Source: Squalus acanthias (Eukaryota). From it: 64,000 nt of DNA. Shown here in pieces: positions 12,805 to 52,996 of the stretch; positions within the stretch are counted from its first letter, which is position 1; each line of letters starts with the position of its first letter. Under the pieces are notes generated by a model. That model was not told the DNA's origin. It did no database searches and saw only the letters and a program-made list of their open reading frames with translations. The stretch covers positions 14,944,001-15,008,000 of the forward strand of contig CM059432.1 of the NCBI GenBank assembly GCA_030390025.1, written 5' to 3'. The position numbers were made by a program, and so were the translations under genes.

Positions 12805-12918
12805 ATTGAGAGGTCGCACAACACCAGGTTATAGTCCAACAGTTTTATTTTAAATCACAAGCTTTCGGAGTTACAACTCCTTCGTCGGGTGAAGTCCAAC
12901 ACCGGCATCTCCGCATCA
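12805..12918. mobile_element. Short hammerhead-bearing element, copy 2 (inverted arm joined to sense tail)
   Basis: TSD TTTGCATCCAGA at 12793-12804 and 12919-12930. The minus-strand arm has a mutated core (CCGACGA) and joins the plus-strand tail GTCCAACACCGGCATCTCCGCATCA. Confidence 0.88.
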
Positions 12919-14534
12919 TTTGCATCCAGAGGCAGTGATGCTTTACTGTCCACCGGTTGCCATAGATACTAAACTGTCTGGTCGAATCCAGTACACATTT
13001 TATTGACTACACAAAGTACAGATGGCCAGAAGGTAGTGTGTAAATTAGCTGTACCAAGACACGACTGCTGTGAGCTGACAGTCAAGTATCATTACCTATG
13101 AGGCTTATCTTCATACTTCCAGTACAGGTCTGGCACGTGAAGATGCATCTTGCCTGGTCTGGTATTTATATTTGCCTGCGCCAACCGCCCCCCCCCCCAC
13201 CCCACCAAAATTCAACTATTTGAACGGTTAAAAATGACCAGTAATAGATAATGGGGCAGGTAAACCAAACTAATTTCTCGGGAGAGATCCTGTGACCCAG
13301 CCTGACACCAATTAGATCTCGCAATAGTGCCCTGCCAGATATATTTCACTATTCAGACTACAAGATGACAACCAATTATGCGGTTTTGACGTGGCCTTGA
13401 CTGAATTGTGACCTGGAAAACAGATTTATTTTTTATGCACTTTGACAGAAAAGGACTTACTTTCAATTTAGACAGTTGAAGAAAAGCATTTAAATCTCAT
13501 TTGTGAGTTTTACTGTTAATCATTGCACCTCTCACATATCACTGCTTCTCGCATATCTCTAGAACATACAGCATTAACTCTCCAGATTATATTTCTATGG
13601 CCCCTGTGTCTTGTTAACTTTAAAGGTCTAGCAGGCAGATACTGCCTGACCCTGCTTGTTCACTTTCAGAATTGCATAATAATTGTCTTTTAGGATTTTA
13701 AATGGATTGGGAAAAACATACAACACAGGCCACTAAAGGAAAATTTTCCATTATCACATAAATCCCACTCTAAGGACTGATAGAACATTTCATGTTTGAT
13801 TCTATTTGATTGGGGTCAAGATTTGCAGAGTTTTAAATGCTTTTTAATTCTACCTGCTCCACCACCTTCTTCAGAAAATGGAATAAGAGATGACTGTCTC
13901 GGTTAGATTATGTGCTCAGAATCCTAACTTTGTCTATCTATTCAAAGAGCGTTCTTGCAGTGTCTGTGTTTTATACAGGGAAGAGGGTACATGACCATCC
14001 AAGTCCTCAATGATGGCAGAGCCCAGCATGTGAGTGCCAAAGATAAGACTGAAGCGTTTGCAACTATCTTTAGCCAAAAGTGCCGAGTGGATGATCCTTC
14101 TCGGCGCCTCCTCCTAAAGTCCCCACCATCATAGATATCAGTCTTTAGCAAATTCGATTTACTCCAGCGACATCAAGAAACGGCTGAGTGCACTGGACAA
14201 AGCAAAGGCTACGGGCCCCGACTATAACCCGGCTGCAGTGCTGAACACTTGTGCTCTCGAACTTGCCTGCAGCCAAGCTGTTCCAGTACAGTTACAGCAC
14301 TGGCATCTACCCGACAATGTAGAAAATTGTGCAGGTGCGTCCTGTCCACAAAATGCAGGACAAATCCAACCCAGCTAATTACTGTCCCATCAGCCTACTA
14401 CCAATCGTCAGCAAAGGTAATGGAAGGAATCGTCAATATTGATTTGTTGCTATTGTCGTCGTTAATGATGGCATCCCGCCACCACGTGTGTCCCAGTGAT
14501 GAGTGTGCTCTAAACATGTGTGTGTCCGAACGAT

Positions 14535-16160: not shown

Positions 16161-16936
16161 ATAACAACAGAAAACGCTGGAAAAACTCAGCAGGCCAGGC
16201 AGCATCCGTGGAGAGAGAAAGAGAGTTAACGTTTCAGGTCGATGACCTTTCGTCAGAACTGTGAAGAGCCGGAAATCAAATAGATTTAAGGCCAGAGTAA
16301 AGCTGGGAAAAGGGGGAGGGGATAAAAGAACAAAGGGGGAGATGAAGAGACATTAAGAGACATTAAGAGATATGCAAGGCTAGAGGTGGTGTTAATGTGA
16401 CAGATTAAGGCTGAAAGAAGTGTGAAATCCACTGGCAGAATGAAGGACAGCTGCCAGCTTCTAGGAGGAAAAAAAAGGTGGGGGGGGGGGCAAATAAAAG
16501 GATGGAAAAAATAAAATATAAATGTGATTGGAGCTGAGGTTATGATCTAAAATTGTTGAACTCGATATTGAGTCCAGAGGGCTGTAGCGTGCCGAAACGA
16601 AAGATGAGGTGCTGTTCCTCGAGCTTACGCTGCGCTTCCGTGGAACAGTGTAATAGGCCGAGGACGGTGAGGTCAGAGTGGGAGTGAAGCGGTGAATTAA
16701 AGTGACAGGCCACCGGGAGCTCGGGGTCCCCCTTACGGACTGAACAGAGGTGTTCCGCAAAGCGGTCACCCAATCTGCGTTTGGTCTCCCCAATGTAGAG
16801 GAGACCACATCGTGAGCAGCGAATACAGTATACTAAATTGCAGGAAGTACAAGTAAATCGCTGTTTCACCTGGAAGGGGTGTTTGGGGCCCTGGACAGTG
16901 GGAAGAGGGGAGGTGTAAGGGCATGTGTTGCATCAA
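16161..16936 (-). mobile_element. 5'-truncated Penelope-like retroelement with GIY-YIG endonuclease and 3' pLTR
   Basis: ORF 16869-16540 reads FTCTSCNLVYCIRCSRCGLLYIGETKRRLGDRFAEHL...LQPSGLNIEF. TSD AAGTACTTTTGAA at 16148-16160 and 16937-16949. Interrupts a SINE. Confidence 0.92.
16224..16260 (-). ncRNA. Minimal hammerhead ribozyme motif of the GIY-YIG Penelope family (second copy at 4801-4837, minus strand)
   Basis: Minus strand reads AGTT-CTGACGA-A-AGGTC-ATC-GACCT-GAAA-CG-TT-AACT. Confidence 0.78.
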
Positions 16937-26894: not shown

Positions 26895-29800
26895 TCAAAA
26901 ATCTATCGATCTCTGTCTTGAATATACTCAACGACTGAGCCTCCACAGCCCTCTGGGGTAGAGAATTCCAAAGATTCACCACCCTCTGAGTGAAGAAATT
27001 TCTCCTCATCTCAGTCCTAAATGGCCGACCCCTTATTCTGAGACTGTGACCCCTGGTTCTAGACTCCCCAGCCAGGGGAAACATCCTCCCTGCATCTACC
27101 CTGTCAAGTCCTGTAAGAATTTTGTATGTTTCAATGAGATCACCTCTCATTCTTCTAAACTCTAGAGAATATAGGCCAAGTCTACTCAATCTCTCCTCAT
27201 AGGACAACTCCCCCATCCCAGGAATCAGTCTGGTGAACCTTCATTGCACTCCCTCTGTGGCAAGTATATCCTTCCTTAGGTAAAGAGACCAAAACTGTAC
27301 ACTATACTCCAGGTGTGGTCTCACCAGGGTCCTATATAATTGCAGTAAGACGTCTTTACTCTTATATTCAAACCCTCTTGTAATGAAGGCCAGCATCCCA
27401 TTTGCTTTCCTAATTGCTTGCTGTACCTGCATGTTAACTTTCAGTGATTTGTGTACAAGGACACCCAGGTTCCGCTGAACACCAACATTTCCCAATCTCT
27501 CACCATTTAAAAAATACTCTACTTTTCTATTTTTCCTACCAAAGTGGATAACTTCACATTTCTCCACATTATATTCAATTTGCCATGTTCTTGCCCACTC
27601 ACTTAGCCTGTCTATATCCCCTTGAAGCCTCTTTGCATCCTCCTCACAACTTACATTCCCACCTAGCTTTGTATCATCAGCAAACTTTCGCGAATCTTTT
27701 CCTTTTTACATACGTATAGAAGCTTTTACAGTCTGTTTTTATGTCTCCCGCTAGATTACTCTCATATTCTATTTTCCCTTTCTTTATCAATTTCTTGGTC
27801 CTCCTTTGCTGAATTCTAAAATCTTCCCAATCCTCAGGCTTACTACTCTTTTTGGCAACATTATAAGCCTCTTCCTTTGATCTAATACTATCTTTAACTT
27901 ATCTTGTTAGCCACAGTAGGACCACTTTTCCTGTGGAGTTTTTGTGCCTTAAAGGATTTTATATTTGTTGTAAATGTATTAATTCCTTAAATGCTAGCCA
28001 TTGCTTCTCTACCATCATACCCTTTAATGTAGTTTCTCAATCTACCTTAGCCAACTCGCCCCTCATACCTACGCAGTTTCTTTCATTTAGATTTGAGACC
28101 CTAGTTTCAGATTTAACTAAATCACTTTCAAACTCAATATATAATTCTTCATATTATGGTCACTCTTCCCTAAAGGCCGCTTTACTAAAGGTTATTAATT
28201 AACTCTTTCTCATTGCACAATACTAGATCTAAAATAGCCTTTTCCCTAGTTGGTTCCTCAACATACTGATCTAGAAAACTATCTTGCATACATTCCATGA
28301 ATTTGCCCTCCGCACTATTACTGCAAATTTGGTTTGCCCAGTCTATATGTAGATTAAAGTCCCCCATGATTACTGTATTACCCTTGTTACATGCACCTCT
28401 AATTTCCTGATTTTTACTCTGCCCTACATTACAACTATTGTTTGGGGGCCTATAAACAACTCCCACCAATGTTTTATGCCCCTTGCTATTTCTTAGCTCC
28501 ATCCAAACTGATTCTACTTCTTGATTTTTGGAGCTAAGATCCTTTCTCTCTGCTGTCTTTATCCCATCCTTTATTATCAGGGCTACCCCTCCTCCTTTCC
28601 ATTTTGCCTATCTCTTCTAAAAGGTAAGTATCCTGGAATATTTAGTTCCCACCCTTGGCCACTTTGCAACCATGTCTCCGTTATGGCTATTAGATCAAAC
28701 CTGTTAATTTCTATCTGCGCTATTAATTAATCTTCATGCATTCAGATATAGTGCCTTTAGCTTTGACTTATTTCTATTTTTCCCTAATGTCACCTTAGTC
28801 ACTGATGCCCTATTACCTTTGTTATTCTCTCTGTCCCTTCCTGACTCACTCTGCTTATTTTTACCCAAGACTCTGCTCTGCTCTAGAGCCTTGACATTTC
28901 TCTCGCTGCTTTTAAATTTACTCTTTTCTGAATCCTCCCACCCCCTTCATTAGTTTAAAGCCCTGTCTACTGCCCTAGTTATTCAGTTTGCCAGGACACT
29001 GGTCCCAACCAGGTTTACGTGGAGCCTGTCCCAACGGAACAGCTCCCTCTTTCCCCTGTACTGGTGCCAGTGCCCCATGAACTGAAACCCCTTCCTCCCA
29101 CACCACTCTTTGAGCCACGCATTTAAACCTCTAATCTGTTTGTCCCTATGCCAATTTGCACGTGGCTCAGGTAACAATCCAGAGATTATTACCTTTGAGG
29201 TTCTGCTTTTTAATATGGATCCTAGCGCCTCAAACTCCCTCAGCAGAACCTCATTCCTAGTTCTACCTATGTCGTTGGTTCCTATGTGGACCACAACAAC
29301 TGGATCCTCCCACTCCCACTCCCACACCAAATTCTTCTCCAGCCGCGAGGAGATGTCTTTAACCCTGGCACCAGGCAGGCAAAACAACCTTCGGAACTCT
29401 TGGTCACAGCTGCAGAGAACAGTATCTATCCCCCTGACTATACTGTCCCCTATCACAACTACATTCCCTTTCACTTCCCCACTTGAATGGCCTCCTGCAC
29501 CATGGTCAGTTTGCTCATCCATCTTGCAGACTTTTCCCTCATCCACACAGGCAGCAAGAACCTCATACCTGTTGGACACCTGACGAAGGAGCAGCGCTCC
29601 GAAAGCTTGTGATCTCAAATAAAGCTGTTGGACTATAACCTGGTGTTGTGCGACTTCTCACATTTGTCCACCCCAGTCCAACACCGGCATCTCCACATCA
29701 TGGCTGTTGGACAAAGGCAAAGGCTGAGGCTCCTCCAGCACTGCACCTTGGGTCTCCTTACCTGGGTGAGTTGGAGTCACACCCTCCTGTCCCTGACCAC

Positions 29801-30600
29801 TAACCAGACCTGTACCACTACCTAACCTAAGGGGTGTGACTGCCTCCTGGATCAAAGTGTCCAGGTAACTCTCCCCCTCCCTGATGCCTTGCAATGTCTG
29901 CACCTCAGACTCCAGCTCAACAACTCATCAAGATGCAGGTACTTACTGCAAACGTGGTTGTCCGGGATCACAATGCTCTCCACATAGTGCTACATGCTGC
30001 AGTTGCGGCACACCACCTGCACTGCCATCCCTGAATGACCTTGTGTTATTTAATTCAATGTAGTAAAATTTGTAATTAGGTAACTTAGTTTGCAGTGTAG
30101 TTTCTTGACTACTTACTTGCTCTAGGTTAAGTTATTGGTACTGAAATTAAATAGCTACCTGTAACACAAAGCACTACAAGTAGTTTAGGCAAAAAGCAAC
30201 AACTCCTTCCCCCCTCTTCTCTAAATTCCCACTCTTTCCAAATTCCCAAATAAAACACTCTGCTTAAATACACTCCGTTTTATCCCACTCTGTGCAGTGC
30301 AGAAATATTTACTCTTATACTCTAGGAGCCTCACCCAATTTGCAAGTGTTGACTCAGCTCCCCTGCTCCTGGTGATTAGCGCCTATTCAAGACAAACACT
30401 TACAGCTGACTGACAGTTAACTGCCACAGGCAGGCACCTTCTGTTAACTACAGTTTTTAAAGTTCGAGGTTAAAATCAAAATCTTAAACTAAATTTCACT
30501 TTTTACAGCTTCTGCTTACCCAATACTTACCAGAAATTCCCACTCTTTCCAAATTCCCAAATAAAACACTCTGTTTAAGTATACTCCGCTTTATCCTGCT
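26895..30600 (-). mobile_element. Near full-span, internally deleted CR1 LINE (5'UTR, ORF1 esterase, APE, RT C-terminus)
   Basis: ORF1 motifs GDSIVRG, PGARVKD, VVVHIGTND, DRLH (28983-29900). APE motifs GVVYRPP, MGDFN, ILDLVL (28185-28700). RT C-terminus KCEVIHFG, RPHLEY, RGDLIETYKI. Direct repeat in the putative 5'UTR (30223-30290 / 30534-30605). Confidence 0.88.
29579..29703 (+). mobile_element. Short hammerhead-bearing element, copy 3 (arm plus tail), inserted in CR1 ORF1
   Basis: TSD CTGTTGGACA at 29569-29578 and 29704-29713; splits the CR1 ORF1 motif LSNRYEVL. Confidence 0.9.
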
Positions 30601-30814
30601 CTGTGAAGACTGCTCTGCACGGACTGGTGGAGTAGAGAGGTCCTGGAGCATTGTGGAAGGGGAACGGATGTTTTGGCATTATTGAGGTGAGGGCTGAGGT
30701 CTGGACAATTCAGGAGGGGAGTAGAGGAATAGCAGCATTTAAGGAGAAGCAGCCCAAGTTTTCGCATCTGACTTTCCATGTCCCTTTTGATGCCATTCTA
30801 CACTGTTAACAGAG

Positions 30815-32208
30815 AATCATAGAATGGTACAGCACAGAAGGAGACCATTCGGCTCATCGTGTCTGTGCCGGCTCTTTGAAAGAGCTATCCAATTAGTCCC
30901 AGTCCTCTGCTCTTTCCCCACAACCATGCAAATATTTCCCCTTCAAGTATTTATCCAATTCACTTTTGAAAGTCATTATTGAATGTGCTTCCTCAGCCCT
31001 TTCAAGCAGTACATTCTAGATCATAACAACTCGCTGCGTAATAATTATTTTTATGCCAATTACCTTAAATGTGTGTCCTCTGGTTACCGACCCTTCTGCC
31101 ACTGGAAACAGTTTCTCCTTCATGATTTTGAACATCTCTATCAAATCTCCCCTTAACCTTCCCTGCTCCAGGGAGAACAACTCCAGCTTCTCTAGTCTTG
31201 CCACATAACTGAAGTTTTTCATCCCTGGTACCATTCTAGTAAATCTTTTTTGCACCCTCTCTAAGGCCTTGACATCCTTCTTAAAGTGTGGTGCCCAGAA
31301 TTGGCCACAATACTCCAGCTGGGGACTAACCAGTGTTTTATAAAGGATTAGCATAACTTCCTTGCTTTCGTACTCTATGCCTCTATTTATAAAGCGGACA
31401 TGATGCGGAGATGCCGGTGTTGGACTGGGGTGGACAAAAGTGAGAAGTCGCACAACACCAGGTTATAGTCCAACAGTTTTATTTGAAATCACGAGCTTTC
31501 GGAGCTGCTGCCCCTTCGTCAGGTGAAGGGAGTGGTTGTGGGGAACGAGCAGAGGACTGGGACTAATTGGATAGCTCTTTCAAAGAGCCGGCACAGACAC
31601 GATGAGCCGAATGGTCTCCTTCTGTGCTGTACCATTCTATGATTCTCTGTTAACAGTGTAGAATGGCATCAAAAGGGACATGGAAAGTCAGATGCGAAAA
31701 CTTGGGCTGCTTCTCCTTAAATGCTGCTATTCCTCTACTCCTGACTTCACCTGACGAAGGGGCAGCAGCTCCGAAAGCTTGTGATTTCAAATAAAACTGT
31801 TGGACTATAACCTGGTGTTGTGCGACTTCTCACTTCTATTTATAAAGCCGAGGATCCTGTATGTATTTTTAACAGTCTTCTTAACTTGTCTTGTCACCTT
31901 CAAAGACTTGTGTACGTATATCCCCAGATGTCTCTGTTCTTGCACCCCCTTTCAAATTGTACCATTTAGTTTATGTTGCCTCTTCTCATTCTTCCTACCA
32001 AAATGAATCACTTCACACTTCTCTGCATTAAATTTCATCTGCCATGTGTCTGCCCATTTTACTGGTCTGTCTATGTCCTCCTGAAGTCTGTTACTATCCT
32101 CCTCACATTTCCGAGTTTCGTGTCATGTACAAACATTGAAATTATGCCCTGTACACCCAAGTTCAGGTCATGAATATATATCAAATAGAGCAGTGGTCCC
32201 AATACTGA
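30815..32208 (-). mobile_element. CR1 3' portion interrupted by element copy 4
   Basis: LYKTLVSPQLEYCGQFWAP...RLRGDLIEMFKIMK and 3'UTR; RT sequence resumes after 31848. Confidence 0.85.
31396..31834. mobile_element. Short hammerhead-bearing element, copy 4: two inverted arms around captured local DNA
   Basis: TSD TCTATTTATAAAGC at 31382-31395 and 31835-31848. Arms at 31396-31528 (-) and 31743-31834 (+). Spacer 31533-31741 is the reverse complement of 30718-30926. Confidence 0.92.
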
Positions 32209-34626
32209 GTAGTTATTGCAGTACTCACCCTTCACCCTCCTCCCTCCCCTCCAACCAGCCCTTGGCCTTCCCTGCTGGTTCCCACTATCAGCCAGGGAAC
32301 AGATTCAGGTTTGTTGCTGCACGTTTAGTGTTTTTTAACCAACTGTATACAATCCAGTTCCCAGCTGAAGCTAGGAATTCCTCAGGAAAGCAGTTTTGGA
32401 GCGTCAGGAGGGAGAGCATTCACAGGCAGGAATGTGACAGGGAATTTGGCAGCAGTGGCAACACTGCGGGAGACCGGGAGGGGGCATTGACGCCAAGATG
32501 GCGAGGCCTGTTGGTGGCAGCGGCGAAAGAGAAATCCCAATTGGGGCTGCGAACTCAACTGAGAAAGGGGAAGACTTGATTTTCAGCAAGAACTTTTTTT
32601 AAAAAAAAACATGCGCTAATAACAGACTAGTGGGGGGTCAACCGAACAGCGAGGAGAGGCAGCAGCAACTTGGGTTGGGCGAGAGGCCTGACGTTCACAG
32701 GCCTCAGCTTAGCGCCGTTGGTGAGATCAGCATCACCTACAGCTGAGGAGCTCGGAAGGCCAGAGGGAGGAGCGACCCAGGTGGGAAGAATGATTCAATC
32801 TGAGGTAAGTATAAGAAGTATTTAAGTGTATAGCCAGGTGTGACAGAACTATCCTGACAAAAACGCATGAGAGGAAAGTGTTACAGGGAGTAATGGTTTT
32901 ACTCAAAGAAAGTATGTGCAATACACAAAGCTTTTAATATAGACAACAACAGCTTGCATCAGGGCAGATGACCAAAAGCTTGGTCAAAGAGGTAGGTTTA
33001 AGGAGCATCTTAAAGGAGGAGAGAGAGGTAGAGAGGCGGAGAGGTTTAGGCAGGGAATTCCAGAGATTGGGGCCTAGGCAGCTGAAGGCGCGGCCGCCAA
33101 TGGTGGGGCGAAGGAGATCAGGGATGCACAAGAGGCCAGAATTGGAGGAGGGCAGAGCTCTCATGAGGGTTATAGGGCTGGAAGGGGTTACAGAGGTAGG
33201 GAGGGGCGAGGCCATGGAGGGATTTGAACACAAGTGATAAAGATTTATTAAGGTAGCAGATTCATGGTTACACTAGTAATGATTATCTCTCCAGGCTTGT
33301 CCTACTATCTGAATGGAGAACTGGGTGATCAGACTGTGATCTAATCATAATTTGTAATGGAACACTACAGATTTAAAAATTATACTCCCAAGAATGTCAA
33401 AATCCTGAAATATATTTAAAAAGAGAAAATACTTTGTGGAAATCATTTACGCATACTTTTCGTAAAAAATATATTTTCTGAGTAGATTATTATAGAATGC
33501 AGCACTAAAATATGTAGATCAATTCCAAATTCTGTTTTCCAAAGTGTTAGTGTTGATGATAGTCTAATGTTTGCTTTCCACATTCTAAACGAATAAATAG
33601 AATCCTGCTATGTGGCCCCGACTGCTATTTTAGATAATGTTTATTTCCTGTCCAATTATCTACTGCATGCTGAATTGGAAAACATATTTCCCAAAACTCA
33701 GTCATCTCCAGGCACATTATTGAATATAAAAAAATGTAATTTAGTTATAGAAAACACCACAGTTCAGGCCACATGATCTTTAAGAGAAGTCTTTCTGTTG
33801 GTGAGCGAAACCTATACATTCGATGATATTAGATGCAAGGTTGTAAAGATTTGAAACAAGATGCACAGGAGCAAGACAGCTCTGCTACTTCCTCACCAGA
33901 AATAATGAGTGTAAGGCACACGGATGTGCAGCTGATATGGTGCAAACTATATACTGGAATGCAATCAACTTTAGCATCATTATAATGTGGTCCTTGAGAG
34001 GCAAGCAAGTTACATCAAGCAACAAAACGCACACTAAAGTGATTGCCCCATAACGCAGCATAAAACATGTATCAGCTTTTCGCTTGAGCAAACCAAAAGT
34101 AATCTCATTGCCCTATTCTTTCCTCGTAGACCAATATATTCCTCTGCTTCATGTATTTATCTAGTTTTCCCAGAAAAGAGGCAATGGTCTCTTCCCCTCC
34201 CTGTGGCAGAGCATTGCATGCTCCGACAACCCACTGCATAAAGACCTTAACTGCTCTCCTCACTTTGTTAATGACAATTACTTAAAGACAATTTTAAATT
34301 GATGTTCCTTCATCACCAACCAACCACAATGTAAGCTCGAGGAACAGCACCTCAACTTTCGATTAGGAACTTTACAACCTTCTGGACTCAACATTGAGTT
34401 CAACAATTTCAGACTATAATCCCTGCCCCTATTTTTTCCACATGGCAGCTGTTGATGATTCTGCCATCCCCATTTGCAACATTTAATCTCTCCTGCCTTC
34501 CACCCTAGCACAGACCTTTCCTTTTGTTTTTTCTCCCCCCGCCCCCCGCCCCCTTTCCCTGCCTCTGCACCTGCTTAAAACCTGTTACATCTCTAATTTT
34601 TTCCAGTTCTGACGAAGGGTCACAGA

Positions 34627-37240
34627 GAGGGTTGCAAAATTCCGGGAATTTATAAAAGAGGAAACTTTCCATGGGAAGTTTTGGGAATTTATGGGAATTT
34701 AGAGTTTTTTTGCACACTGATGGTTTTTGTCTCTGACCCTTGTATTATCTTTGTCATCAAAATAGACATACTGTTCCATACAAATAAAAACAGGCTTTCA
34801 AAACTTTATTTAGGTTATAATTTTGAACTTCATTGAACCCCCACAAAAAAGACCCATCTAAAATAAAACAAAAAGAGCGTCAGCTTATTTAACCTGTAAT
34901 TTGTCCTTATTTTGTCCCTTTGAGTCTTCTACTCATGAGTCTTCTGAGTCTTCTACTCATCAGTGCTCCTCCTGATTCTCTGACTCTGGCTCTGACGTGT
35001 CCATTTCCTCCTCTGTGTCACTGTCTAGCTCTGTGCTGGACACTTCTGTATCTGGCTCAATAAGTTGTAGGTTCGCCCGGATAGCCACCAGTTTCTTCAC
35101 TCTCTTTTTAGTCAGCCTGTTGCGCACCTTTGTATGCGTATTCCCAAAAAGTGACCAGTTTCGTTCAGAGGCCGCTGATGAAGCTGGGATTTAGAGTATC
35201 ACCAATGCAATGGGTGACAGGGCCTCAGATGCACAAAGTCCCTTCCACCAGGTATGTGCACTGATATGCTGGCATGATTCCCATATCCTGTCCCCATTCC
35301 AAAGACCTTGCTTGGTAGAGAACTTTGCCAGACTTCCCAGAACTTTGCCCACGTCCAGATTGAGGTGGCGTGAGAGGGTAGAAATCACACTGTAAGCGCT
35401 GTTGATCTGTTCTCCAGAAAGTATTGGTCTCCCAACATGCTTTGGGTCCAGCATGTATGCTGCAGCACGAATCGACTTGACACAAAATTCTTGACGCGTC
35501 TGTATGAATTGAACAATTGCCTTCTCCTCTGCTTTGAGCAGCAGGGATGTGGGTAGGGCAATGCTGATTTGTTCTTTTAAATCAGCAAAACGCCTGAGAA
35601 CATCTGACAAGACAGCGTCATCTCCTTCAATCTGAGCAATTGCAGATGCTACTGGTGAGAGTAGTTTAAGGCTGCTAACCACTCTCTCCCAAAACACATC
35701 ATCCAGCAGTATTTTCTTGATGGTGGTTTCCATATCCCCAGACTGGGATATTGCCATTTCTTGCAGTGACTCCTTACCCTCCAGAAGGCTGTTGTACATT
35801 ATGACAACGCCACCCCATCTAGTGTTGCTGGGCAGCTTCAGTGTGGTGTTCTTGTTCTTTGTCGTTTGCTTGGAGTTGTAGGTTGCTGCAACTACCTGTT
35901 TTCCCCTGACATACTTAACAATTTTGTTGGCTCTCTTGTACAGTGTTTCCATGGTTCTCAAACCCATGATGTCCTTGAGGAGCAGATTGAGCCCATGAGC
36001 TGCGCACCCAATAGACGTAATATGAGGGTAGGCCTCCTCCACTTGAGCCCAAGCAGCCTTCATATTCGCAGCATTGTCAGTAACTACTGCAAAGACCTTT
36101 TGTGATCCAAGATTGTTGATGACCGCTTTCAGCTCATCAGCAATGTATGTGCCTGTGTGTCTGTTGTCCTTCATGTCTGTGCTCTTGAAGAACACTGGGA
36201 GAGGAGTGGAGACGATGTAGTTTATGATGCCCTCCCCTCATACATTTGACCGCCCATCTGAGATAACTGCAACACAGTCTGCCATCTCTATCATTTCTTT
36301 GAGCTTTCCTTCGACTCTGTTATACTCAGCCTCCAGCAAATAACTAGACAAAGCATATCTGGTGGGAGGACAGTATGCAGGGCGAATAACATTGAAAAAT
36401 CTCTTCCAGTACACATTGGCTGTGAGCATGAGGGGTGAGCCTGTCGCATACACAGCTCGAGCAAGGCACTCATCTGCATTCTTCTGGCTATGGTTATCCA
36501 TTGTATCAAAGAACCTTCCAAGTGGGCCAGGAGTTGCTGATGATAAGGAGCCTGATGCTGAATGTGAACCATCATCTTCTTGAATGGAAGCAGAGGAACT
36601 CTGGGCTGACTGCTGTGAGCTTTGAGTGAAGTTGTTGCATTTGGATAAATGCTGCTGCATCTTTGTGGCATTCTTTACATATGGCTTTGTACAGTGTTTG
36701 CACATGTACACAGTCTTTCCATCTTTAATGCCTGGGGTAAAATGCTTCCACACATCCGACGGTAAACGTGGCATTGTTCTATGCAGAGAAATAATGGGCA
36801 TTCGTCTCTGTGTCGAACTGCGGTCGATCAGCACGATTGCAACAGGGTGAGTAAATTTTTCCTGATGCTCCATGTGATGGAAGCATGACCTGTGCACGCA
36901 CGACGCTACATCACCAATAGAGGGAGCTAATCGCTCATCCACTCATCCAACCAATCAGGACACATTTGTTCACAGTCACACACAAAACTTGTAATTATTA
37001 AAACAAGCCAAGTAAGAAGATAAACATATATTGATTAAGAAATTCCTTAATAATTAAGATTCCATCTCTGTTAGTAATTTTAAGAGAGGACCTCTGGAAA
37101 AAAAAGAAAGAAATACAAAAAAAAACAATATTATGCTAGCATGTGCTTTTTTGGGCAAAATTCCCAAAATTCCCAAGCTAAACTTCCCGTGGAAAATTTC
37201 CGGAAATTTCCCGGAAATTTTCCACCCCTTCGCAACCCTA
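34627..37240 (-). mobile_element. Full-length hAT-superfamily DNA transposon (2614 bp)
   Basis: 8-bp TSD GTCACAGA at 34619-34626 and 37241-37248. Terminal inverted repeats (TIRs) GAGGGTTGCAAA / TTCGCAACCCTA, subterminal GG(G/A)AATTT arrays at both ends, and an internal transposase frame. Confidence 0.93.
34960..36774 (-). pseudogene. hAT transposase (BED zinc finger, DUF659-like DDE core, C-terminal dimerisation domain) with two in-frame stops
   Basis: One frame of 605 codons from MPRLPSDVWKHF (C-x2-C...H-x3-C BED finger) through SDGRSNV*GEGIINY, VVTDNAANMKAA, CAAHGLNL, TRWG, LVIL*IPASSAASERNWS to a TGA at 34960. Premature stops at 36238-36240 and 35191-35193; no frameshift. Confidence 0.9.
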
Positions 37241-38436: not shown

Positions 38437-39410
38437 GGCCCGGATTTTACGGTAAGAATAAAGGCGATGCTATCAATGCTCACAGTCATTAAGGAGTAAA
38501 TAGGACAGCAACTTCAGGCGTCCGCACATGTGCAGTTAAATGTGGAAATCGTGAAGTTGCTGTCCGAGTTGCCCTACTCCTCCAGACGCTTCGCTCTAAC
38601 AGTATCTCGCCGAGAGACTCAGCACTGAAACACTTGCAACGCTGTGAAGTTGCGGTACTTACTCACTAGACACCCACTAAACAGGCCAGAAAAAGTTAGG
38701 GCTTGTCCATTCCAGTGTAAGTGAATTTTTAACGGTATGATAAGTCTTAATTACTGCCAAATAACCTCCCTGGCACTGAAAATTAGCTTTTAAAAGTGTG
38801 GAGTTAATTATTGTGATGCGGAGATGCCGGTGTTGGACTGGGGTGGACAAAAGTGATAAGTCGCACAACACCAGGTTATAGTCCAACAGTTTTATTTGAA
38901 ATCACAAGCTTTCGGAGCGACTGCTCCTTCGTCAGGTGACGAAGGAGCAGCAGCTCCGAAAGCTTGTGATTTCAAATAAAACTGTTGGACTATAACCTGG
39001 TGTTGTGCGACTTATCACGAGTTAATTATTGTTGGAGACTTTTAAAAATAAAAATAATTTTTTTTTACTTTTTCTTTCTGTCTCTTTTATCTCTCTCTTA
39101 ATCCCATCTTTCTTTCCCTCTCTTTATTTCGCTTTCTGTACATGATTTGGCGTTGAATTAATAACTGACACTTCCCGGTTTAGACTCTGCATGGTGCAGT
39201 AAGGATTCTGCAATCTGATTGGTTAAGGAGACACACTGTTGCTTGCCCTGTTCACACAGGTCCCAGGTGCCCTGTAGAGGGAGCCGTGCCGTTTTGGATT
39301 TCTAATTACCGCAAGTTGCGGTGCAAATTCCCACAGAAAGTATGTGGGCAAGTGTAAGTGTAATGAACAGCGAGCGTCGCTCGTTCGCCGCTGACCGCAA
39401 AGTCCGGGCC
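38437..39410. mobile_element. Harbinger-like MITE (hosts element copy 5)
   Basis: TIR GGCCCGGATTTTACGG / CCGCAAAGTCCGGGCC, flanked by CAT and AAT. Confidence 0.72.
38815..39018. mobile_element. Short hammerhead-bearing element, copy 5 (palindromic)
   Basis: TSD GAGTTAATTATTGT at 38801-38814 and 39019-39032. Head-to-head arms meet at GTCAGGTGAC. Confidence 0.92.
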
Positions 39411-40700
39411 AATATGTCTCAGGTGGACGTAAAAGATCCCACAGCAATATTTCGAAGAAGAGCAGGGGAGTTATCCCCAGTGTCCTGGCCAATATTTATC
39501 CCTCAACCAACATCACTAAAACAGATTATCTGGTCATTATCACATTGCTGTTTGTGGGAGCTTGCTGTGCGCAAATTGGCTGCCGCGTTTCCTACAGTGA
39601 CTGCTTCACTGACAGTAAATTGCTTTGGGATGTCCTGAGGTCATGAAAGGTGCTATATAAATGCAAATCTTGCTTCCTTCATGGGTTGTGATACGTTGGA
39701 AAAATAACATTTAAGGACAGGTAAGATGATAAAATTTTGAGCAGAAACATCTTCCAAGAATCTCATGACTCCCCGGACTGGCAGGATGCACAGTCCGCTT
39801 CAGAGCTCGTGCGTCCCATACCCCAGCACCCCCACCATCCAACCCTCCCCCCACCCCCCCGCCCCCTTTTAAAGAGGGCCATGATATCACAGTTCACACC
39901 CAGAATCCAAAGCAGTCATGGCAGTATGACAAGGAATTGCGTGGGAAACAAGGAAAAGACTTCCTTTGTGAGCAAAATCATGACCGCCTTCATATAAGAA
40001 CATATTTATGATCTCCTTACAAATAGCAAACAGAGTAAATCCCTCCTCCCCAGAGTTTCCTTACAGAGACAGGGGGAAATTGAGGAGTTACCTCAGGGCT
40101 AACTATAATTCTCCAACAGTGGCCAACTTCTGCATGACACTCAAGCAAGCCTGGAGGCAGAATGCCTGCAAAGAGGTCTTATTTCCCATCATTTAAATAA
40201 ACGATTCCCTCGAATCAGTCTACACATTGTGACAATGATGTTTTATTAATCAACAATTTTCTCATTCCTGATATATTATACAAACCAATGACTGAGATTC
40301 CAGGTCGATAGTCTTTGCTAATGGCTGGTTGCTAGGAGATGAATGGGAGTGGTACATATTGATTAACAGACTAATTTCCCTCCATCTCTACACGTATGCA
40401 CCTAACCCCTACCTCATGAGATTTTCTTCAACAATTACAGCAAATTAAAAAAAAATCATGATAGAAAATTAGAGAGTTGTGTGTCTGTATATCAATGGGA
40501 AGCACAGCAAACAAGTCCTGAAGAGATGCCTAGAAGCCATGAAAGAAATAATCCTCCAACTATTGTTCTCTAAAGCCTCTGACAGTGACATTTGCCACTT
40601 GGATTCCTGCACAAGAATTTCCATTACAACCTATAGCTTTTGATATCTACACAAGCATCTGTACTTTGTTCTTTAAATAACAGCTGTCATCATAAATAAT

Positions 40701-40980
40701 GAGAAGTCGCACAACACCAGGTTATAGTCCAACAGATTTATTAAATTTTACAAGCTTTCGAAGCAGTTCGCTCCTTCGTCAGGTAAGTTAGCAGTGAGAG
40801 AATCTCCCAGAATTCACAATTTATTGTGAATTCTGGGAGATTCTCTCACTGCTATCTTACCTGACGAAGGAGCGAACTGCTTCGAAAGCTTGTAAAATTT
40901 AATAAATCTGTTGGACTATAACCTGGTGTTGTGCGACTTCTCATTTTTGTCCACCCCAGTCCAACGCCGGCATCTCCACA
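40701..40980. mobile_element. Short hammerhead-bearing element, copy 6 (near-perfect palindrome with ~120-bp arms plus tail)
   Basis: TSD TCATCATAAATAAT at 40687-40700 and 40981-40994. Symmetry centre AATTCACAAT-TT-ATTGTGAATT near 40821. Confidence 0.92.
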
Positions 40981-41102
40981 TCATCATAAATAATAGCATT
41001 AAACAATATCGGTAGAATTCTTTTTAGTCAGCACCACAACGTTTGAGAATTGTCAAATGAAGTTGCTAAGAAATCTACATCTACATTTCTGTTTTCCCAA
41101 TA

Positions 41103-42674: not shown

Positions 42675-42777
42675 CTGACAGGGGCTCCTCTGCTCTGGGC
42701 AGGCTTCAGCAGAACAGTCACTGTGCTGTCGGTCTGGTTCAAAGGTGCATCATAATCATACGCTGGCATGGATGGTG
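42675..42777 (-). CDS. PTPRM: Next coding exon of the same R2B phosphatase (absent from the ORF track)
   Basis: 103-nt exon with acceptor ...gatttttgtag and donor gtagaa. Splices in phase 1 to the 202-nt exon, giving (A)[33 protein letters not shown](S). Confidence 0.9.
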
Positions 42778-43289
42778 CTACAAAAATCAGACAACAAAAT
42801 AAGTATATTGTTAAGTCTTTTCGCTATGTAATTATCTCAAGTACAGAATTTAAAAGCAGTTCATCATCCTTCTCATTATTTCCACCTGCATACAATACAA
42901 CCATGACAGCACATAAGGCAAAGCTGCACGCAGTAACTTTGCAATCATAATCGCCATAACAGTGACGGTAGATACATGAGCATCGCCCCAAAACAAAACA
43001 GGAAAGCAGAAAACCACTGAAAGCTGCCGATTAAGAACTAAAAGATGGGATGCCACGAATTGAAGGTCATTCCATGCTGCTGGATGACTCCATAAGCTGC
43101 TAAAGTTCACAATGTTATCTGAACCTAACCAGCATGGTTCAGAGAGTACTGAATGGCTGGAGTCTAGAATCAGAGTTTGTGGATGACATTATAAACTTGC
43201 GAAAGTGAAAAGGGCCTCAGTGATTTACAGCCAGGTTGCAGTAATTTGTCACAGCAGCATAAACACACACTCCACGCTAAATATTTGCG

Positions 43290-43670
43290 ATGTCACGCAC
43301 TCCAAGCCAATTGTTATTCTCTGTAACACACTTTAGACCAACTGTTATTCTCTCTAACATGTTTCAAACTAATTGTTATTCTCTGTCACAGACTTTAGAT
43401 CAAATGTTATTCTCTCAAACACATTCCAAACCAATGGTTATTCTCTGTAACACATACCAATCTAATGATTATTCTCTGTAATAAGCACTTCACAGAAACT
43501 GCTATTCTCGGTAACACATTCCAAATCAATTGTTATTCTCTGTAACACACACTTCAAAGCAACTATTATTCTCTCACACACTCATAAGTCATCTACTTCC
43601 CCGTATGCAAGAGATGTCCAGCCTCTGTTATTCTCCTTATAGCACACTCCCAGTCATTTGTTGCTTTCTA
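43290..43670 (+). repeat. Degenerate ~31-bp tandem repeat
   Basis: Recurrent AATTGTTATTCTCTGTAACACA at roughly 30-33 bp spacing. Confidence 0.8.
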
Positions 43671-45329
43671 TGTAATTGATGTCAAAGGGTTAATAAGCGT
43701 TTACTGTAATACTTGGATTGCCTTTTCTTTTAGTTCGTTTTGCGCAGTCAGGAAAATCCATTCCATAAAATAAAAATTATTAATTTGCAACATTGAAGAG
43801 GTTTAAACAGTAAAAACGTACTTGATTATAATAAGTGACTGTACAATTCTTGATTAAAGGAACATATCATTGCCTGCTGTGTCTGTGTACCTCTGCACCT
43901 TAACTACTTTGCCTTGTACAACTTCAACTGAAATACTTCATAGAAGCAAAGCTATCTTGACAGCCTCTAAACTCTACATCTCAGTATGGATCCACGTTAC
44001 ATAATAGCAAGTGTCAAATTAATGAATAATTGCAACCACTTAAATCGCTGATTCACTCTATTGTTTAAGGAATCGTCCATGTTTACCACATTTTTCATAA
44101 ACACCTTCCCTGGAAACAGTTAAAAAAAAAGACTGATGTGAATTTGCTATCAGTGACTCCAACCGTACATTGAATATATAAAGTGACTGCACTGTAAACT
44201 CTTTCATCATAGACTGGGAGGTGCCACAAATCAAACGGTTTGCAATAAGCCACTGCTTTGCCAATTTTTCAAAACTCAATTTTTTTCCAAGCCATCCAAT
44301 GTTCTCGCTCCTCGCAAGTAATTGGTAGCAGGATTAGAGGGGAGTTGAGGAGAAATTTTTTCACCCAGAGGGTGGTGGGGGTCTAGGACTCACGAACTCG
44401 AGAGGCAGAATCCCTCCTCGCATTTAAAAACTACTTGGATATGCACTTGAAGTGTCGTAACCTGCAAGGCTACGGACCAAGAGCTGGAAAGTGGGATTAG
44501 GCTGGAGAGCTCTTTTTCAGCCGGCACAGACACAATGGGCCGAATGGCCTCCTTCTGTGCCATACACTTCTATGATTCTATGATTCTCTTCTCTTGAGTT
44601 GTGTTGGCTATGATTCCACGGGTGCCAGGTGTCCGCGATATCTTGTCCAAGTGGCCACTTTTCATATGTGAGTCCAGACAGTGAGTGTGAGCAGAGTATT
44701 CTATTGGGGGCATCATAGCCGTGCCTGATCCTATCCTGAATCCAATCCCCCACCCGCACGCACTTTCACAGCAGGAGTCACTGAATAGTGATCACGAGAG
44801 GGAACACTGATTCATTTTTTTCCCCCCCTCTCCCGAGTCTAAGGCTCCTGCATAATCTACTTGGATGACCTGTATGTTGAAACCAATTGTAAGCCTGTCA
44901 AATTTGTTGACAATGAAAAAACAGTGTCTAATAAAGACAGAGATGAAGCAAAAGATTTGCAACAGGGTTTAGATTGGCTATGTAATTGCACAGACATGTG
45001 GTAAATCAACCGTAACACTGATAAATGTAAAATATTGCACAAAGATTGAAGGAAAAAAATGCTGCACATAAATCAGGATCGGGTACGGTAGTGGTTACGT
45101 TACTGGACTAGTGATCGGGACCAACAACCTGGGAGAACGAGTTCAAATCCCACCATGGCAGCTTAAAGAATTTGAATTCAGTTTCATGCCTAGAAATTGT
45201 TCCTTGCATTTATTTACAATTATTCCACAGGCAAAGACATCGAGAGCACATCATCTACTGTTAGATAAATGCAAGAGAAGGAGGAATTTCAACCCAATAG
45301 AGTAAAACTCCCAAAAATGTCTCTTAAAA

Positions 45330-47340
45330 GGAACATAAGAAATAGGAGCGAGAGTAGGCCGTTCGGCCCTTCGAGCCTGCTCTGCCATTCAATAAGATCA
45401 TGGCTGATCTTCCATCTCAACTCCACCTTCTCGCACTATCCCCATTTCCCTTGGTTCCTTTAGTATCCAAAAATTCTATCGATCTCTGTCTTGAATATAC
45501 ATTTGCTGAAGGGATAATTACTAGTCCTAGCCCCTTTAGGGCTACCCCGGATCAGGCATATTCTTCAGACGTTCACTTTCAACTAAAGTTTGAGGTAGCC
45601 GAATCCTAAAGATGCTTAATTGGGTCTAAAGGTCCAGACTATCTCTCCCTAAACGAAAGGAACAACCTGAAGATGTTACCGTCCTCCAGATAGCACTTTT
45701 AATAAGTTTAGCTAGACTGTAACGTTCCGGATATTATGAGGGTGCAGAAAACTCCCCCAGAATTCTGCAACTCCTCACCAAAGGGCGTACAGAGATTGAG
45801 TTCACGAGTTTGATACAGAAGTATTATGTGAGACAATTCTAAAAATATATAGATTTATTAACGAACCGACATGTAATTACAGTTGGTGATTCAATTGCAA
45901 CATTAACAGTTCCAGAAACAGAAATCTTACAATTCTATTATCAGAGATCCTTATTCTCAAATCTTAACTTCGTTACATTTTTACAGTTCTTAGTCTTTAT
46001 TTCAGGATATCCACCAAAATCAAATACAGTACAATACCTTGATCCCCGAGGTACAAAGAGTTGTAGACTTACAGAGCTTGCCTCTGAAGCCGAGAATCGC
46101 TTTGCCCCTTTACAGCGAGACTATCATCCCATTTGAAAGTTCAATATTTATATCCTTTTTCAGTGGTATGTCCTTTGAAGTTTTCTGCTGATGTAAGCTA
46201 ATTATCTCTAGTCATTTTTCTGCTGACCCCTGCTATTCTTACAGTCAGTTCAGCTGGTAGCATTAAGAATCGTGTCTCTACCCCAGGTGTTCGGAGCTTA
46301 TCATAAAAACGGTGTGACAGCAGATGCATCTATTTGATGTCATTCTGACCAAGGTCTTCTGTTTGTGTCTTTTTACGACATGTAAATTAAAAACACCTCA
46401 ACCGGGTGCACCATTGTCTTCTTAGTTACCTCAACTGGTTGTAACACAGACTCGTGTCTCCTGTATTTCATCTGATGTCATTTTTACGAAGGCATATGTT
46501 TCTTAATTTTATGTGTTTCTTTCCAAGGTGTAATTTAGGACACCTTAACATGTGTTCTTTCCAAAGCTTCAGACTTCAGGAGCTTGCAACCTCCTGTTTC
46601 AATAAGGTTATTGATTCAGTGTCAACAACTTATCTTATCTCAATAGCCTGTATGCTGTTAACAATACAGCTTTTCATAGCCAGGTTTCTAGATTTCCAGA
46701 CCTAGTTTGTCATGTTTTAATAAGGCTAGAATTCTTTCATAGAATGGTGTATTTTTCTGAATATGGCTTATTCCTTCACATTGCAACCTTCCAATCCGCG
46801 GGGACTGTTCCAGAATCTAGGGAATTCTGGAAGATCAAAACCAATGCATCCACTATCTCTGTAGCCACCACTTTTAAAACCCTAGGATGTAGGCTATCAG
46901 GTCCAAGGGATTTGTCTGCTTTTAGTCCCATTAATTTCTCCAGTACTATTTCTTTAAGTTTCTCATTCTCATTCTCACCAGACCCTTGGTTCCCCATTAT
47001 TTCCAGAATGTTATTTGTGCCTCCTTCCGTGAAGACAGATACAAAGTATTTCTTTAATATCTCTGCCATTTCCTTATTCTCCATTATAATTTCTCCTGTC
47101 TCTGCCTGTAAGGGACCCACGTTTACTTTCTTTTTACATACCTATCGAAGCTTTTACAATCTGTTTTTATGTCTCTTGCTAGTTTACTCTCATTCTATTT
47201 TATCTCTCTTTATCAATTTCTTGATCATCCTTTGCTGAATTCTAAAATCCTCCTAATCCTCAGGCTTACTACTCTTTTTGGCAACATTATACGCCTCTTC
47301 CTTTAATCTAATACTATCTTTAATATCTCTTGTTAGCCAC
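45330..47340 (-). mobile_element. CR1 fragments (45330-45506 3' end; 46781-47340 ORF2) flanking the solo LTR
   Basis: EMAEILKKYFVSVFT...KSLGPDSLHPRVLK...VPADWKVA; 3'UTR at 45330-45500. Confidence 0.8.
45507..46780 (-). mobile_element. Probable solo LTR (1274 bp), ERV- or LTR-retrotransposon-like
   Basis: Starts TG and ends CA, with short terminal inverted repeat TGAAGGGATAA / TTATTCCTTCA(CA). 4-bp TSD TTGC at 45503-45506 and 46781-46784; removing the insert restores CR1 sequence ACATTTGCAACCTTCC. TATA-like (~46150) and AATAAA (~46000, ~45856) motifs on the minus strand. Confidence 0.65.
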
Positions 47341-47547
47341 ACAGAAAACACCTTCTACTCTGACATTCCCATTTCCTACACCAGCCATGTTTTTAGCGCT
47401 CTGCATGAGATTCTAATTTAGTGATAAGTAGAGTTTAATTATGTAAGTTTTCCACTGTGGATTCACACATACACTTGGAAGTGAATGTAATCTGCTCCAA
47501 ATTTTCACTTAATTTGGCACACCTTAATGCCATCAGCAAATTAGTGG

Positions 47548-47993
47548 TACAGTAGCATGGTGGTTATGATAATGGACTAGTAATCCAGAGGCCTGGACTA
47601 ATTATCCAGAGACATGAGTTCTAATCCCATGATGGCAGCTAGGGAATTTAAATTCAGTTAATTAAATAAATCTGGAATTTAGAAAAAAAGCTAGTATCAG
47701 TAATGGTAACCATGAAACTACTGGATAGTTGTAAAAACCCATCTGGTTCACTGATGTCCTTTCAGGAAGGGAATTTGCTGTCCTTACCTGGCCTAGCCTA
47801 TATGTGACTCCAGACCCACAGCATTGTGCCCTCTGAAATGGCCTAGTAAGCCACTCGGTAGTACCAAACTACTACAAAAAAGTATACTACCTTCACCACA
47901 TGGATTGCAGCGGTTCAAGACGGGCAGTTAGGGAAGGGCAATAAATGCTGGCCTTTCCAGCAACGCCCACATCCCACACGAATAAAAAAAAAA
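47548..47993 (+). mobile_element. SINE sharing its 3' end with the LINE at 58842-59658 (another copy at ~7627-7915, minus strand)
   Basis: tRNA-like head, and tail GGGCAATAAATGCTGGCC...CCCACATCCCA...GAAT(A)n. Confidence 0.7.
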
Positions 47994-48892
47994 TATTTTC
48001 TCAACAATTGATTTCATAGAAGTAGATCACAACAACAATGGTGTGGGGCTGGAGGAGATTACAGAGATAGGGAGGGGCGATGCCATGGATGGATTTGAAA
48101 ACAGGGATGAAAATTTTAAATCGAGGCATTGGTTAACCGCGAGCACATCTTCTCTATGTCCTTACATTGCCATTGACTACATGGCAGCACCTTGGCTACA
48201 TCACATAAGCTGCTTTCAACACTATGTTTGAGCAAATCTGAATTGTACAATCATCATCCAACAAGACACTAGGGTCAGCCGTCACTCACTTGTAGCACTC
48301 TCGCCTCTGAGTCAGAAGGTTGTGGGTTCAAGTCCCACTCCAGAGACTTGAGCACAAAAAATCTCGCCTAACACTCCAGTGAGAGAATACTGCACTGTCG
48401 GAGGTGCCGTCTTTCAGATGAGACGTTAAATCGAGTTTCAGGTCGACGTAAAAAATCCCATGGCACTATTTCGAAGAAGAGCAGGGGAGTTATCCCCGGT
48501 GTCATGGCCAATATTTATCCCTCAATTAACATCACTAAAAACAAATTATCTGGTCATTATCACACTGCTGTTTGTGGGAGCTTGTTGTGTGCACAAATTG
48601 GCTGCCACGTTTCCTACATTACAACAGTGGCTACACTTCAAAAGTGCTTCATTGGCTGTAAAATATTTTATTTCATTCCTGCACAGGACCAGTTGGAGAG
48701 TGTTAAAAGTATGGGGCCTAGACTTGCTGTGTGGCTTCATTTCTCAGGAAGTTATAAAGTTTGAAACTGCAAAAGTTTTCCAAAAGACAATTTTGAGAAA
48801 TAACCTTAAGTTCTCTGTTCCCTCAAACGAAATATATTTCTGAAACTGCTCATTACCAAACAGCGTAAGATGAATGTAGCGGAAAGCAATAC

Positions 48893-49094
48893 CTGATATC
48901 TTTGTAGTAAACTGTTTGGTGACGGGTAGCCCACAGCCTTTGACAGTGCTGGCCCGGATAGTGAACGAGTAGGTGGTCCCCGGGTACAAGCCAACAAACA
49001 GGTGGTGGGTCTCATTTCCTAACTTGAACACGCGACCACTTTGGTTCGATAAGTCAATCTCAGGGTCAAAGGAACCGATGCCATTGTAGAAGAC
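48893..49094 (-). CDS. PTPRM: Internal coding exon of receptor-type tyrosine phosphatase mu (R2B family), fibronectin type III region
   Basis: 202-nt exon with acceptor ...ctctccaaatag and donor gtattg. Translates as [67 protein letters not shown]. From memory, [15 protein letters not shown] and QFTTKIS are PTPRM-type rather than PTPRT/K/U. Confidence 0.88.
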
Positions 49095-51461: not shown

Positions 51462-51523
51462 CATGATGCGGAGATGCCGGTGTTGGACTGGGGTGGACAA
51501 AAATGAGAAGTCGCACAACACCA
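51462..51523 (-). mobile_element. Short element copy 7, truncated (tail side only, no ribozyme)
   Basis: TSD GGTTATTGAG at 51452-51461 and 51524-51533, with microhomology GGTTAT to the element. Confidence 0.85.
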
Positions 51524-52904
51524 GGTTATTGAGTACATAGAAGTGTCAGGACTGGGGGAAAAAAAAGCATTAACGGTCAACTGGCCAGTCCTCAAAGATC
51601 AAAACATATTATTAGATTATTCCATGTTGTTTCAGGAATTGAGCCTGTACACAAACACCCCACTGAGCTGGTAATGTTCCTTAAAGGCACTTAGCACCAG
51701 CTCAAGCTATTGCCCTGATGAGCATCCCTAACACTCATGATGGAAGTAGAATCAAAGAGCCAGCTGCACCATCAGGACCCCAATAAAAATGAAATCGTTA
51801 CAAAGAATGATTGAATGACTTGGACTTTGTTCTTTAATGTTAATTGTGTTGTTTTTTTTGTTGTTGTTGAATATTTAATAGGGAAAACTGATGTGTTTAT
51901 TATGAGAACTGGCTTGGACAGAGCTTATTCAGAAGAGCTGCTAAACCCAACATGGTGAGTAAGTTGAATTCGCACACAACATAACTGGATGATATCACGG
52001 AGGCTCCCTAGGTTAACGACTATCCCAAGCGATATTAATTCAGCTCCCGCATGCTCTCAGATTCAATAACTCCTTCCAACCAGTTCCCTTCAGAATTCGC
52101 TGTTTAAATTTTTTTTTTAATCCGAAGATCAACAGACTGAAAAAGAACAATTAATAATAACTCTTTTTCAGCAAAATCATTTTAAATGGTGAAGCTCCCT
52201 CTTGAAAACAGTGAGAATTCAACTATCCAGCAGCTTAGTGATCAAATGTACCATCCAGGAAATCACTGAACTATGTTGATCAAAAAAGTCCTAGGTTCAG
52301 TCCCGCGTCTGTGTTGGGTTAGCTGAGCCCAGTATGGGTGCGACTATTGACCTCAGCACCATTTGTGCCAGGAAGAAAGAAAGACTTGCATTTATATAGC
52401 ACCTTTCACGACCTCAGAATGTCCCAAATTGCTTCACAGCCAATGAAGTACTTTTGAAGTGTAGTCACTGTTGCAATGTAGGAAACGCGGCAGCCAATTT
52501 GCACACAGCAAGCTCCCACAAACAGCAATGTGAGAGTGACCAGATAATCTGGCTTTTTTTTTTTAAGTGATGTTGATTGAGGGATAAATATTGGCCAGGA
52601 CACCAGAGGTAACTCCCCTGCTCTTCGAATAGTGCCATGGGAGCGCAGACAGGGCCTCGGTTTTAACATCTCATCCGAAAGACGGCACCTGTGACAGTGC
52701 AGCACTCCATCAGTACTGCACTGGAGTGTCAACCTAGATTTCTGTGCTCAAAGAAGGGCAAAAGGCAGATAGGGCTCCCACTCTTAATTGCTATTCTGTG
52801 ACATTCGATGACTCAACATGTGAAGAATGGCCATTTGAGTGAGGTCCCAACATAACCCAGCGTGAATCAGTGTATTCAGGAGGGAGAAGAGAAAGCTGGT
52901 GGCA

Positions 52905-52996
52905 CTTCACCTGACGAAGGAGCAGCGCTCCGAAAGCTTGTGATTTCAAATAAAACTGTTGGACTATAACCTGGTGTTGTGCGACTTCTCACATTT
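52905..52996 (+). mobile_element. Short hammerhead-bearing element, copy 8 (single arm without tail)
   Basis: CTTCAC-CTGACGA-A-GGAGC-AGC-GCTCC-GAAA-GC-TT-GTGA...GCGACTTCTCACATTT. No clear TSD. Confidence 0.85.
52907..52943 (+). ncRNA. Minimal type I hammerhead ribozyme motif (representative copy)
   Basis: Stem I TCAC/GTGA, core CUGACGA(+A), stem II GGAGC/GCUCC, GAAA, palindromic vestigial stem III (AGCU), H17=U. Predicted cleavage after 52939. Confidence 0.8.

Follow-up and report, generated by a model that had tools for sequence, protein, structure and literature searches.

The window analysed here is a stretch of 64,000 nucleotides from Squalus acanthias (GCA_030390025.1, contig CM059432.1, positions 14,944,001 to 15,008,000 of the forward strand). 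A host-gene search of the 100 longest of its 256 non-repeat open frames identified two coding exons of PTPRM, which are 97% and 100% identical to a shark protein over residues 519-619; the next PTPRM exon is not within the window. The window to the left of exon 42677-42778 appears to be one intron. The insertion described here, downstream of the second exon, would thus be intronic, and its locus, together with that of the copied donor, is expected to be transcribed on the minus strand. The features on which the following account is based are, by coordinates and strand:

6835-7262, plus strand: sister copy with a 12-bp duplication, joining arm sequence to the C terminus of a reverse transcriptase (RT) / GIY-YIG open reading frame (ORF)
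30710-30716, plus strand: donor continuation whose reverse complement, CTCCTGA, equals the right junction at 31738-31744, with a 5-nt skip
30718-30926, plus strand: donor segment, about 92 bp of unique flank and about 117 bp of LINE 3' end
30810-32200, minus strand: host LINE fragment interrupted by the insertion, right end approximate
30939-30945, plus strand: donor continuation whose reverse complement, TGAAGGG, equals the left junction at 31524-31530, with a 12-nt skip; candidate priming site
31382-31395, no strand: left copy of the 14-bp target-site duplication, an exact direct repeat
31399-31528, minus strand: left arm, a terminal repeat end with a 40-nt tail (31399-31438); three extra bases (31396-31398) separate it from the duplication
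31489-31526, minus strand: predicted minimal type I hammerhead motif of the left arm
31529-31532, plus strand: left junction bases GGAG
31533-31741, minus strand: captured inverted copy of the donor, by sequence comparison
31742-31743, plus strand: right junction bases TG
31744-31834, plus strand: right arm, a tail-less end of the same terminal repeat; its hammerhead motif spans 31747-31784
31835-31848, no strand: right copy of the 14-bp target-site duplication, an exact direct repeat
42677-49094, minus strand: PTPRM coding exons 48891-49094 and 42677-42778

Other features of the neighbourhood are recorded here for completeness. On the minus strand, a GIY-YIG coding fragment at 16543-16932 belongs to a second, more distant Penelope-like family; long open frames at 35194-36942, with matches to a BED zinc finger and DUF659, are likely a hAT-type transposase; and 28188-29657 is the 5' region of a LINE with matches to a GDSL-esterase ORF1 and an endonuclease. 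This LINE carries an inserted Penelope arm (29577-29703), of which public contigs contain the empty form. A 75-bp direct duplication (30223-30297 and 30534-30608) is 91% identical over copies 311 bp apart, and 32300-32800, about 500 bp from the insertion, is single-copy and mildly CpG-rich.

At the centre of the composite, 31533-31741 and the reverse complement of 30718-30926 agree at 208 of 209 positions, the sole mismatch being a T in the donor at 30913 and a C in the copy at 31546 (plus strand). Within 29500-33500, exact inverted runs reach 195 nt, whereas 100 shuffles gave no more than 18. This spacer sits between two head-to-head arms, and everything lies inside one 14-bp duplication. The original prediction had described such an inverted copy with one mismatch, and our alignment upholds it. 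The donor had also been placed about 455 bp from the target site and across a border between flank and CR1 3' end; we count 455 bases from its end to the left repeat, and its measured makeup of non-repeat flank and host LINE 3' end agrees. The composite structure is real in the assembly, and very likely real in the animal.

The insertion site itself is well defined. The sequence TCTATTTATAAAGC is present as an exact direct repeat on either side of the insert. With the insert and one repeat taken out, the sequence aligns through the site without a break to a paralogous LINE copy, and the reverse-transcriptase frame is restored, with FINR on either side. Similarly, among other genomic copies of this LINE, the consensus of the loose ends at 31395 continues as the window does after 31848. 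The interrupted LINE, which we take to be CR1-like, matches RT-domain proteins from birds, alligator and sharks. The exact repeats, as had been proposed, enclose the composite, and they mark one insertion site. The further step from one duplication to a single event is weaker than stated, because later repair of a plain head-to-head copy, by a centre break and synthesis on the flank, leaves the same single duplication. The composite insertion is young, with 1 difference in 209 between copy and donor, 1 in 80 between the arms and 0 in 14 between the duplications.

A local origin of the spacer, as originally claimed, is supported by several comparisons. In the non-LINE part, 14-mers taken every 6 bases over 30718-30808 each occur exactly twice in the window (both strands). 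In the LINE part, two paralogues agree with each other against the donor at 21 columns, and the spacer carries the donor's variant at all 21. Two related species, about 5% different from the window in unique DNA nearby, have contigs that run across 30718 at single-copy depth (7.57 vs 7.59 and 14.7 vs 18.2). These unbranched contigs, assembled from a set of four public runs, fit a duplicate that is missing in both species, although contigs cannot show the absence of a duplicate. Because they cross 30718 at single-copy depth, the donor is old at its place, and 31533-31741 is the derived copy. Over 30594-30839 there are 10 gap letters of difference between the window and the contigs of these species.

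The same evidence bears on the possibility that the 209 bp are a dispersed repeat, or cargo of the arm family, that lies near its twin by chance. Such a reading could draw on the 117 of 209 bp that are a high-copy LINE end. It has to contend with a non-LINE part found only twice in the window and single-copy across 30718 in two related species, with the sharing of all donor-private variants, and with the other copies of the arm family in the window, 0 of 8 of which carry the spacer. We regard it as close to refuted.

An assembly or consensus artefact is also very improbable. Neither junction is among the 15 joints listed, of 1323, in contigs of the four runs; the two closest runs (2 and 4 differences in 818 bases) barely cover 30640-30773 and are uninformative. 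A mis-join would, however, have to account for an exact 14-bp duplication with a restorable empty site, and for a base substitution and skips at the junctions in agreement with the donor's continuation, which would be unusual for mis-joins.

Each arm carries a putative type I hammerhead of the kind found in Penelope-like elements. The core (CUGANGA / GAAA) is present in the arms, and helices I and II are paired in 96.2% of 105 cells; two-sided changes occur in 2 of 9 pairs, in sequences so related that they represent few independent events. In place of helix III, the arms have the palindrome AGCU, and a minimal hammerhead of the AGCU type has been described for Penelope-like elements (PMC4209133). 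A search with Rfam returned no hammerhead match at E≤1; a match to mir-3524 was dismissed as chance, at 21.6 bits versus a threshold of 99.

Endonuclease-bearing Penelope-like elements have a single ORF in which a C-terminal GIY-YIG endonuclease follows the RT. Protein evidence for this is indirect and comes from the sister copy at 6835-7262, the copy at 31399-31834 being without an ORF. This sister, which belongs to another subfamily (8-9 differences in 80 columns), encodes 38 residues with one stop, the end of an ORF. The peptide matches the C termini of 25 library proteins at E≤0.001; on its own it matched no Pfam family. Among five of the matched proteins that were scanned, one of 881 amino acids has an RVT_1 domain above the cut-off, and one RVT_1 and one GIY-YIG domain fell below it. 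The 305 bp upstream of the arm at 7140 were considered as captured flank and rejected, as they are the element's ORF end. No RT of the arm family lies within the 64-kb window, and scans for motifs of the family found 0 loci in metagenome contigs, viral contigs and prokaryote genomes. Based on the hammerhead motif, the 40-nt tail on one arm and the sister copy with its ORF end, we assign the arms, whose element the original prediction had left unnamed, to the ends of an endonuclease-bearing Penelope-like element.

The family of the arms has 9 copies in the window, 8 of which have a target-site duplication of 10-15 bp; for the single arm at 52904-52997 there is no convincing duplication within 2.5 kb. 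Joining this arm with 51462-51529 into one large composite was rejected, as a separate 10-bp duplication encloses the latter. Five copies have two head-to-head arms, and in all five the tail (35-40 nt) is on exactly one arm. Their centres comprise three direct joints, one joint with an 11-nt filler and the one long spacer at 31533-31741; joints with 3-4 nt of microhomology are found at 12893-12896 and 38936-38938. The filler at 61763-61773 forms a small hairpin and repeats a short stretch of the arm end in direct orientation, and the right arm of that copy has a changed hammerhead core base. Between the arms of one copy there are 0-2 differences in 80. This agrees with the anatomy in print (PMC8557442; PMC3846280). 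The arms at 31399-31834 are thus ordinary for Penelope-like elements, and the centre alone is unusual.

Arm starts are clustered: 9 of 12 aligned arms begin within 8 nt of the hammerhead core (for example 29577, 31528, 31744, 38937, 52904 and 61762), and contigs from the public runs have a recurrent joint at the same spot. The hot spot may reflect the 5' end of an RNA or a stop of the RT. The arms of 40700-40982, a near-perfect palindrome of 254 bp, end outside the region where arms usually stop, at 40 and 38 nt upstream of the core. This is the one copy informative for arm coupling, the others stopping in the shared hot spot, and we did not accept coupling as proof that the arms arise by fold-back. 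The similarity of the arms within a pair was set aside as proof for the same question, since one source RNA gives it too. In the copy at 12805-12919 the arms do not overlap (about 90 nt for the tail-less arm and 27 nt for the tail end); they are joined through 4 nt of microhomology, and the duplication is 12 bp long. It looks like classic twin priming, and its non-overlapping arms favour twin priming over fold-back.

Two of the copies, at 38815-39018 and 40700-40982, are near-perfect head-to-head palindromes without a spacer. Palindromes can break at their centres. It is conceivable that a plain head-to-head palindrome with arms of about 90 bp was inserted first, and that a later centre break was repaired by the same fold-back synthesis inside the old duplication; the final sequence would be identical. 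We consider this order of events unlikely. Both arms at 31399-31834 retain 6-7 nt upstream of the hammerhead core, at least as much as the directly joined copies, which leaves little room for loss at the centre. Nor do the differences between arms, copy and donor, and duplications given above carry a sign of two ages, with counts too small for a test.

The junctions of the spacer suggest how the copy was made. At the left junction, the last 5 bases of the arm and 2 more equal the donor's reverse complement 12 nt ahead of the 209-bp match; at the right junction, the last 4 bases of the copy and 3 more equal the donor 5 nt past its end. Matches of 7 nt were reached by 230 of 24578 control stretches on the left and 234 of 24578 on the right (about 1% each), in tests that were picked after inspection, involve few bases and use a window-wide null that underweights the short purine repeat at the donor edge (30710-30721). 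Within 1.5 kb, the left top strand offers only two 5-nt pairing sites, and the candidate priming site at the left junction is one of them. There are at least three other explanations for GGAG: family upstream sequence minus one base, the donor's other end, and a pairing site at 31118. DNA folding of the two stretches of donor that were skipped revealed no structure to explain the skips (z 0.75 and 0.27), and to read 31743 as a cap-derived G is speculation. Based on the 7-nt continuation of the donor at both junctions, copying was likely primed by microhomology and slipped near both ends, over a stretch that possibly ran from about 30710 to 30945.

We tentatively favour the reading that fold-back synthesis on the resected left flank, during integration, made the inverted spacer. 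The geometry is one of 3' overhangs at a 14-nt staggered cut, at which the top strand is extended by the left arm and the bottom strand by the right arm. By analogy with the biochemistry of PAc, an element from Anolis, the element's endonuclease would nick both strands 14 nt apart, and each 3' end would prime reverse transcription, with the tail start site serving one of them and an inner start site the other. Resection of the left end over at least about 670 nt would then leave the top strand single. The end of the left cDNA, TGAAG, matches its complement at 30941-30945 on the same strand and could have primed there; two bases would be added, 12 skipped, and copying would continue leftward as far as about 30710, incurring a substitution and a 5-nt slip on the way. 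The new strand would be freed and joined to the right arm via 1-4 nt of microhomology, or alternatively would re-prime on its own left arm. Final fill-in would leave the 14-bp duplication.

Identity, orientation, side, duplication and junction matches are observed in the sequence. Several of these fit fold-back synthesis. The inverted orientation is what fold-back on the same strand yields, and snap-back SD-MMEJ, in which same-strand copying gives inverted insertions, provides a precedent (PMC5728401). A continuous top-strand path needs the donor to be on the same side as the arm with the tail, which is where it lies. The centres of sister copies have joints of repair type (3-4 nt of microhomology, or the 11-nt filler). 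The one-tailed arms in 5 of 5 two-armed copies match the report that PAc in vitro nicks both strands and extends them from two start sites bounding the tail (PMC11167929). Against this, the microhomology at two ends fits either direction of copying and does not separate fold-back from a template switch, minus-strand transcription of the locus could expose the other strand, and 209 bp copied at 455 bp exceeds yeast foldbacks and the typical distance of L1 templated insertions. The reading is built on one case.

The fold-back extension would probably have been done by a host repair polymerase. Insertions by POLQ alone are described as typically up to about 30 nt (PMC11724301); the spacer lies outside this range of polymerase theta-mediated fillers, and a length of 209 bp compared with about 30 nt argues against polymerase theta alone. 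The original prediction had named a template jump during reverse transcription or templated repair. Templated joining of two cDNA arms holds as a class of event. On the element's RT as the copier the sequence is silent, and microhomology and inverted orientation fit host repair synthesis equally well or better.

The closest competitor, which we hold to be somewhat unlikely, reads the same junction matches in the opposite direction. The cDNA end of the right, tail-less arm would have switched template, through the element's RT or by strand invasion, to the bottom strand of the donor or to minus-strand PTPRM pre-mRNA, copied rightward from about 30710 to 30945 and then been annealed to the left arm via the 5-nt match. 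The PTPRM exons are on the minus strand with the next exon outside the window, and a transcript of the right polarity should cover the donor; any gene orientation suits one of the arms, however, so that the polarity match is no evidence. Switching of L1 to nearby DNA (10.1101/2024.08.27.596794) and to other RNAs (PMC13174262) has been proposed, and the clustering of arm starts near the hammerhead core could mark a point at which the RT stops or jumps. Yet resection takes away precisely the bottom strand of the left flank, strand invasion on 2-4 nt of homology is hard, and a jump to a very long pre-mRNA alone does not predict a donor at 455 bp.

A broader proposal, which we think doubtful, is that head-to-head Penelope insertions in general arise by one strand folding back as the element's own RT switches template. 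The present copy would be a misfire in which the strand went first to flank DNA or nascent host RNA and then to its own arm, and shark Penelope elements would be a recurrent, genome-wide source of local inverted duplications. If true, such spacers would record the strand, direction and order of the Penelope integration pathway.

The structure at 31382-31848 is best read as a repair accident at a Penelope-like insertion. As a single and seemingly intronic event without a sign of function, it is of little consequence alone. It does extend local inverted duplication from somatic human L1 to a germ-line event of another class of retroelement. The origin of the inverted arms and one-sided tail of Penelope elements is called unresolved (PMC8557442; PMC11167929). 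A local spacer has a side, an orientation and junctions, so that, even without a cell system, a genome-wide set could test fold-back against twin priming and repair by the host against copying by the element's enzyme.

Local templated and inverted duplications are already published for L1, and in the literature searched, which did not extend to subscription papers and supplements, we found no Penelope case of local inverted capture. The shark spacer has the marks of a local templated insertion: it is a copy of DNA near the target with the donor intact, and it has microhomology at its junctions. L1 insertions with a local inverted duplication or inversion share a preserved target-site duplication and an inverted copy of the flank (10.1101/2024.12.14.628481, with an earlier version as PMC11702581), and the model proposed for the duplications likewise consists of resection, self-annealing at short homology and synthesis (10.1101/2024.12.14.628481). 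As far as that account goes, in the L1 duplications a small hairpin at the reciprocal end provides the primer and no cDNA is involved, whereas the shark copy, in a Penelope-like element, is flanked by cDNA arms on both sides and begins at a distance of 455 bp from the nick. L1 templated insertions, of which 22 cases are described and for which a figure legend counts 3,598 insertions, similarly copy in a genomic piece of less than 250 bp at integration, but from templates typically within 15 bp of the site rather than 455 bp away (10.1101/2024.08.27.596794). Canonical endonuclease-bearing Penelope-like elements have the same head-to-head, 5'-truncated arms with a hammerhead motif, a 30-40 nt tail confined to one end and a short duplication of an AT-rich target; the portions available to us of these descriptions do not mention a local genomic spacer between inverted arms (PMC8557442; PMC11167929). 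In Adineta vaga, Penelope pLTRs and one target-site duplication also enclose non-element DNA, but this is an NRPS cargo between two direct pLTRs that moved elsewhere, and a local or inverted donor is not described in the available text (PMC3846280). Yeast foldback inversions (PMC11724301) and snap-back SD-MMEJ (PMC5728401) share copying on the same strand primed by microhomology, release and end joining; the yeast foldbacks, at 2 to about 150 bp, adjoin the break and occur without a retroelement (PMC11724301).
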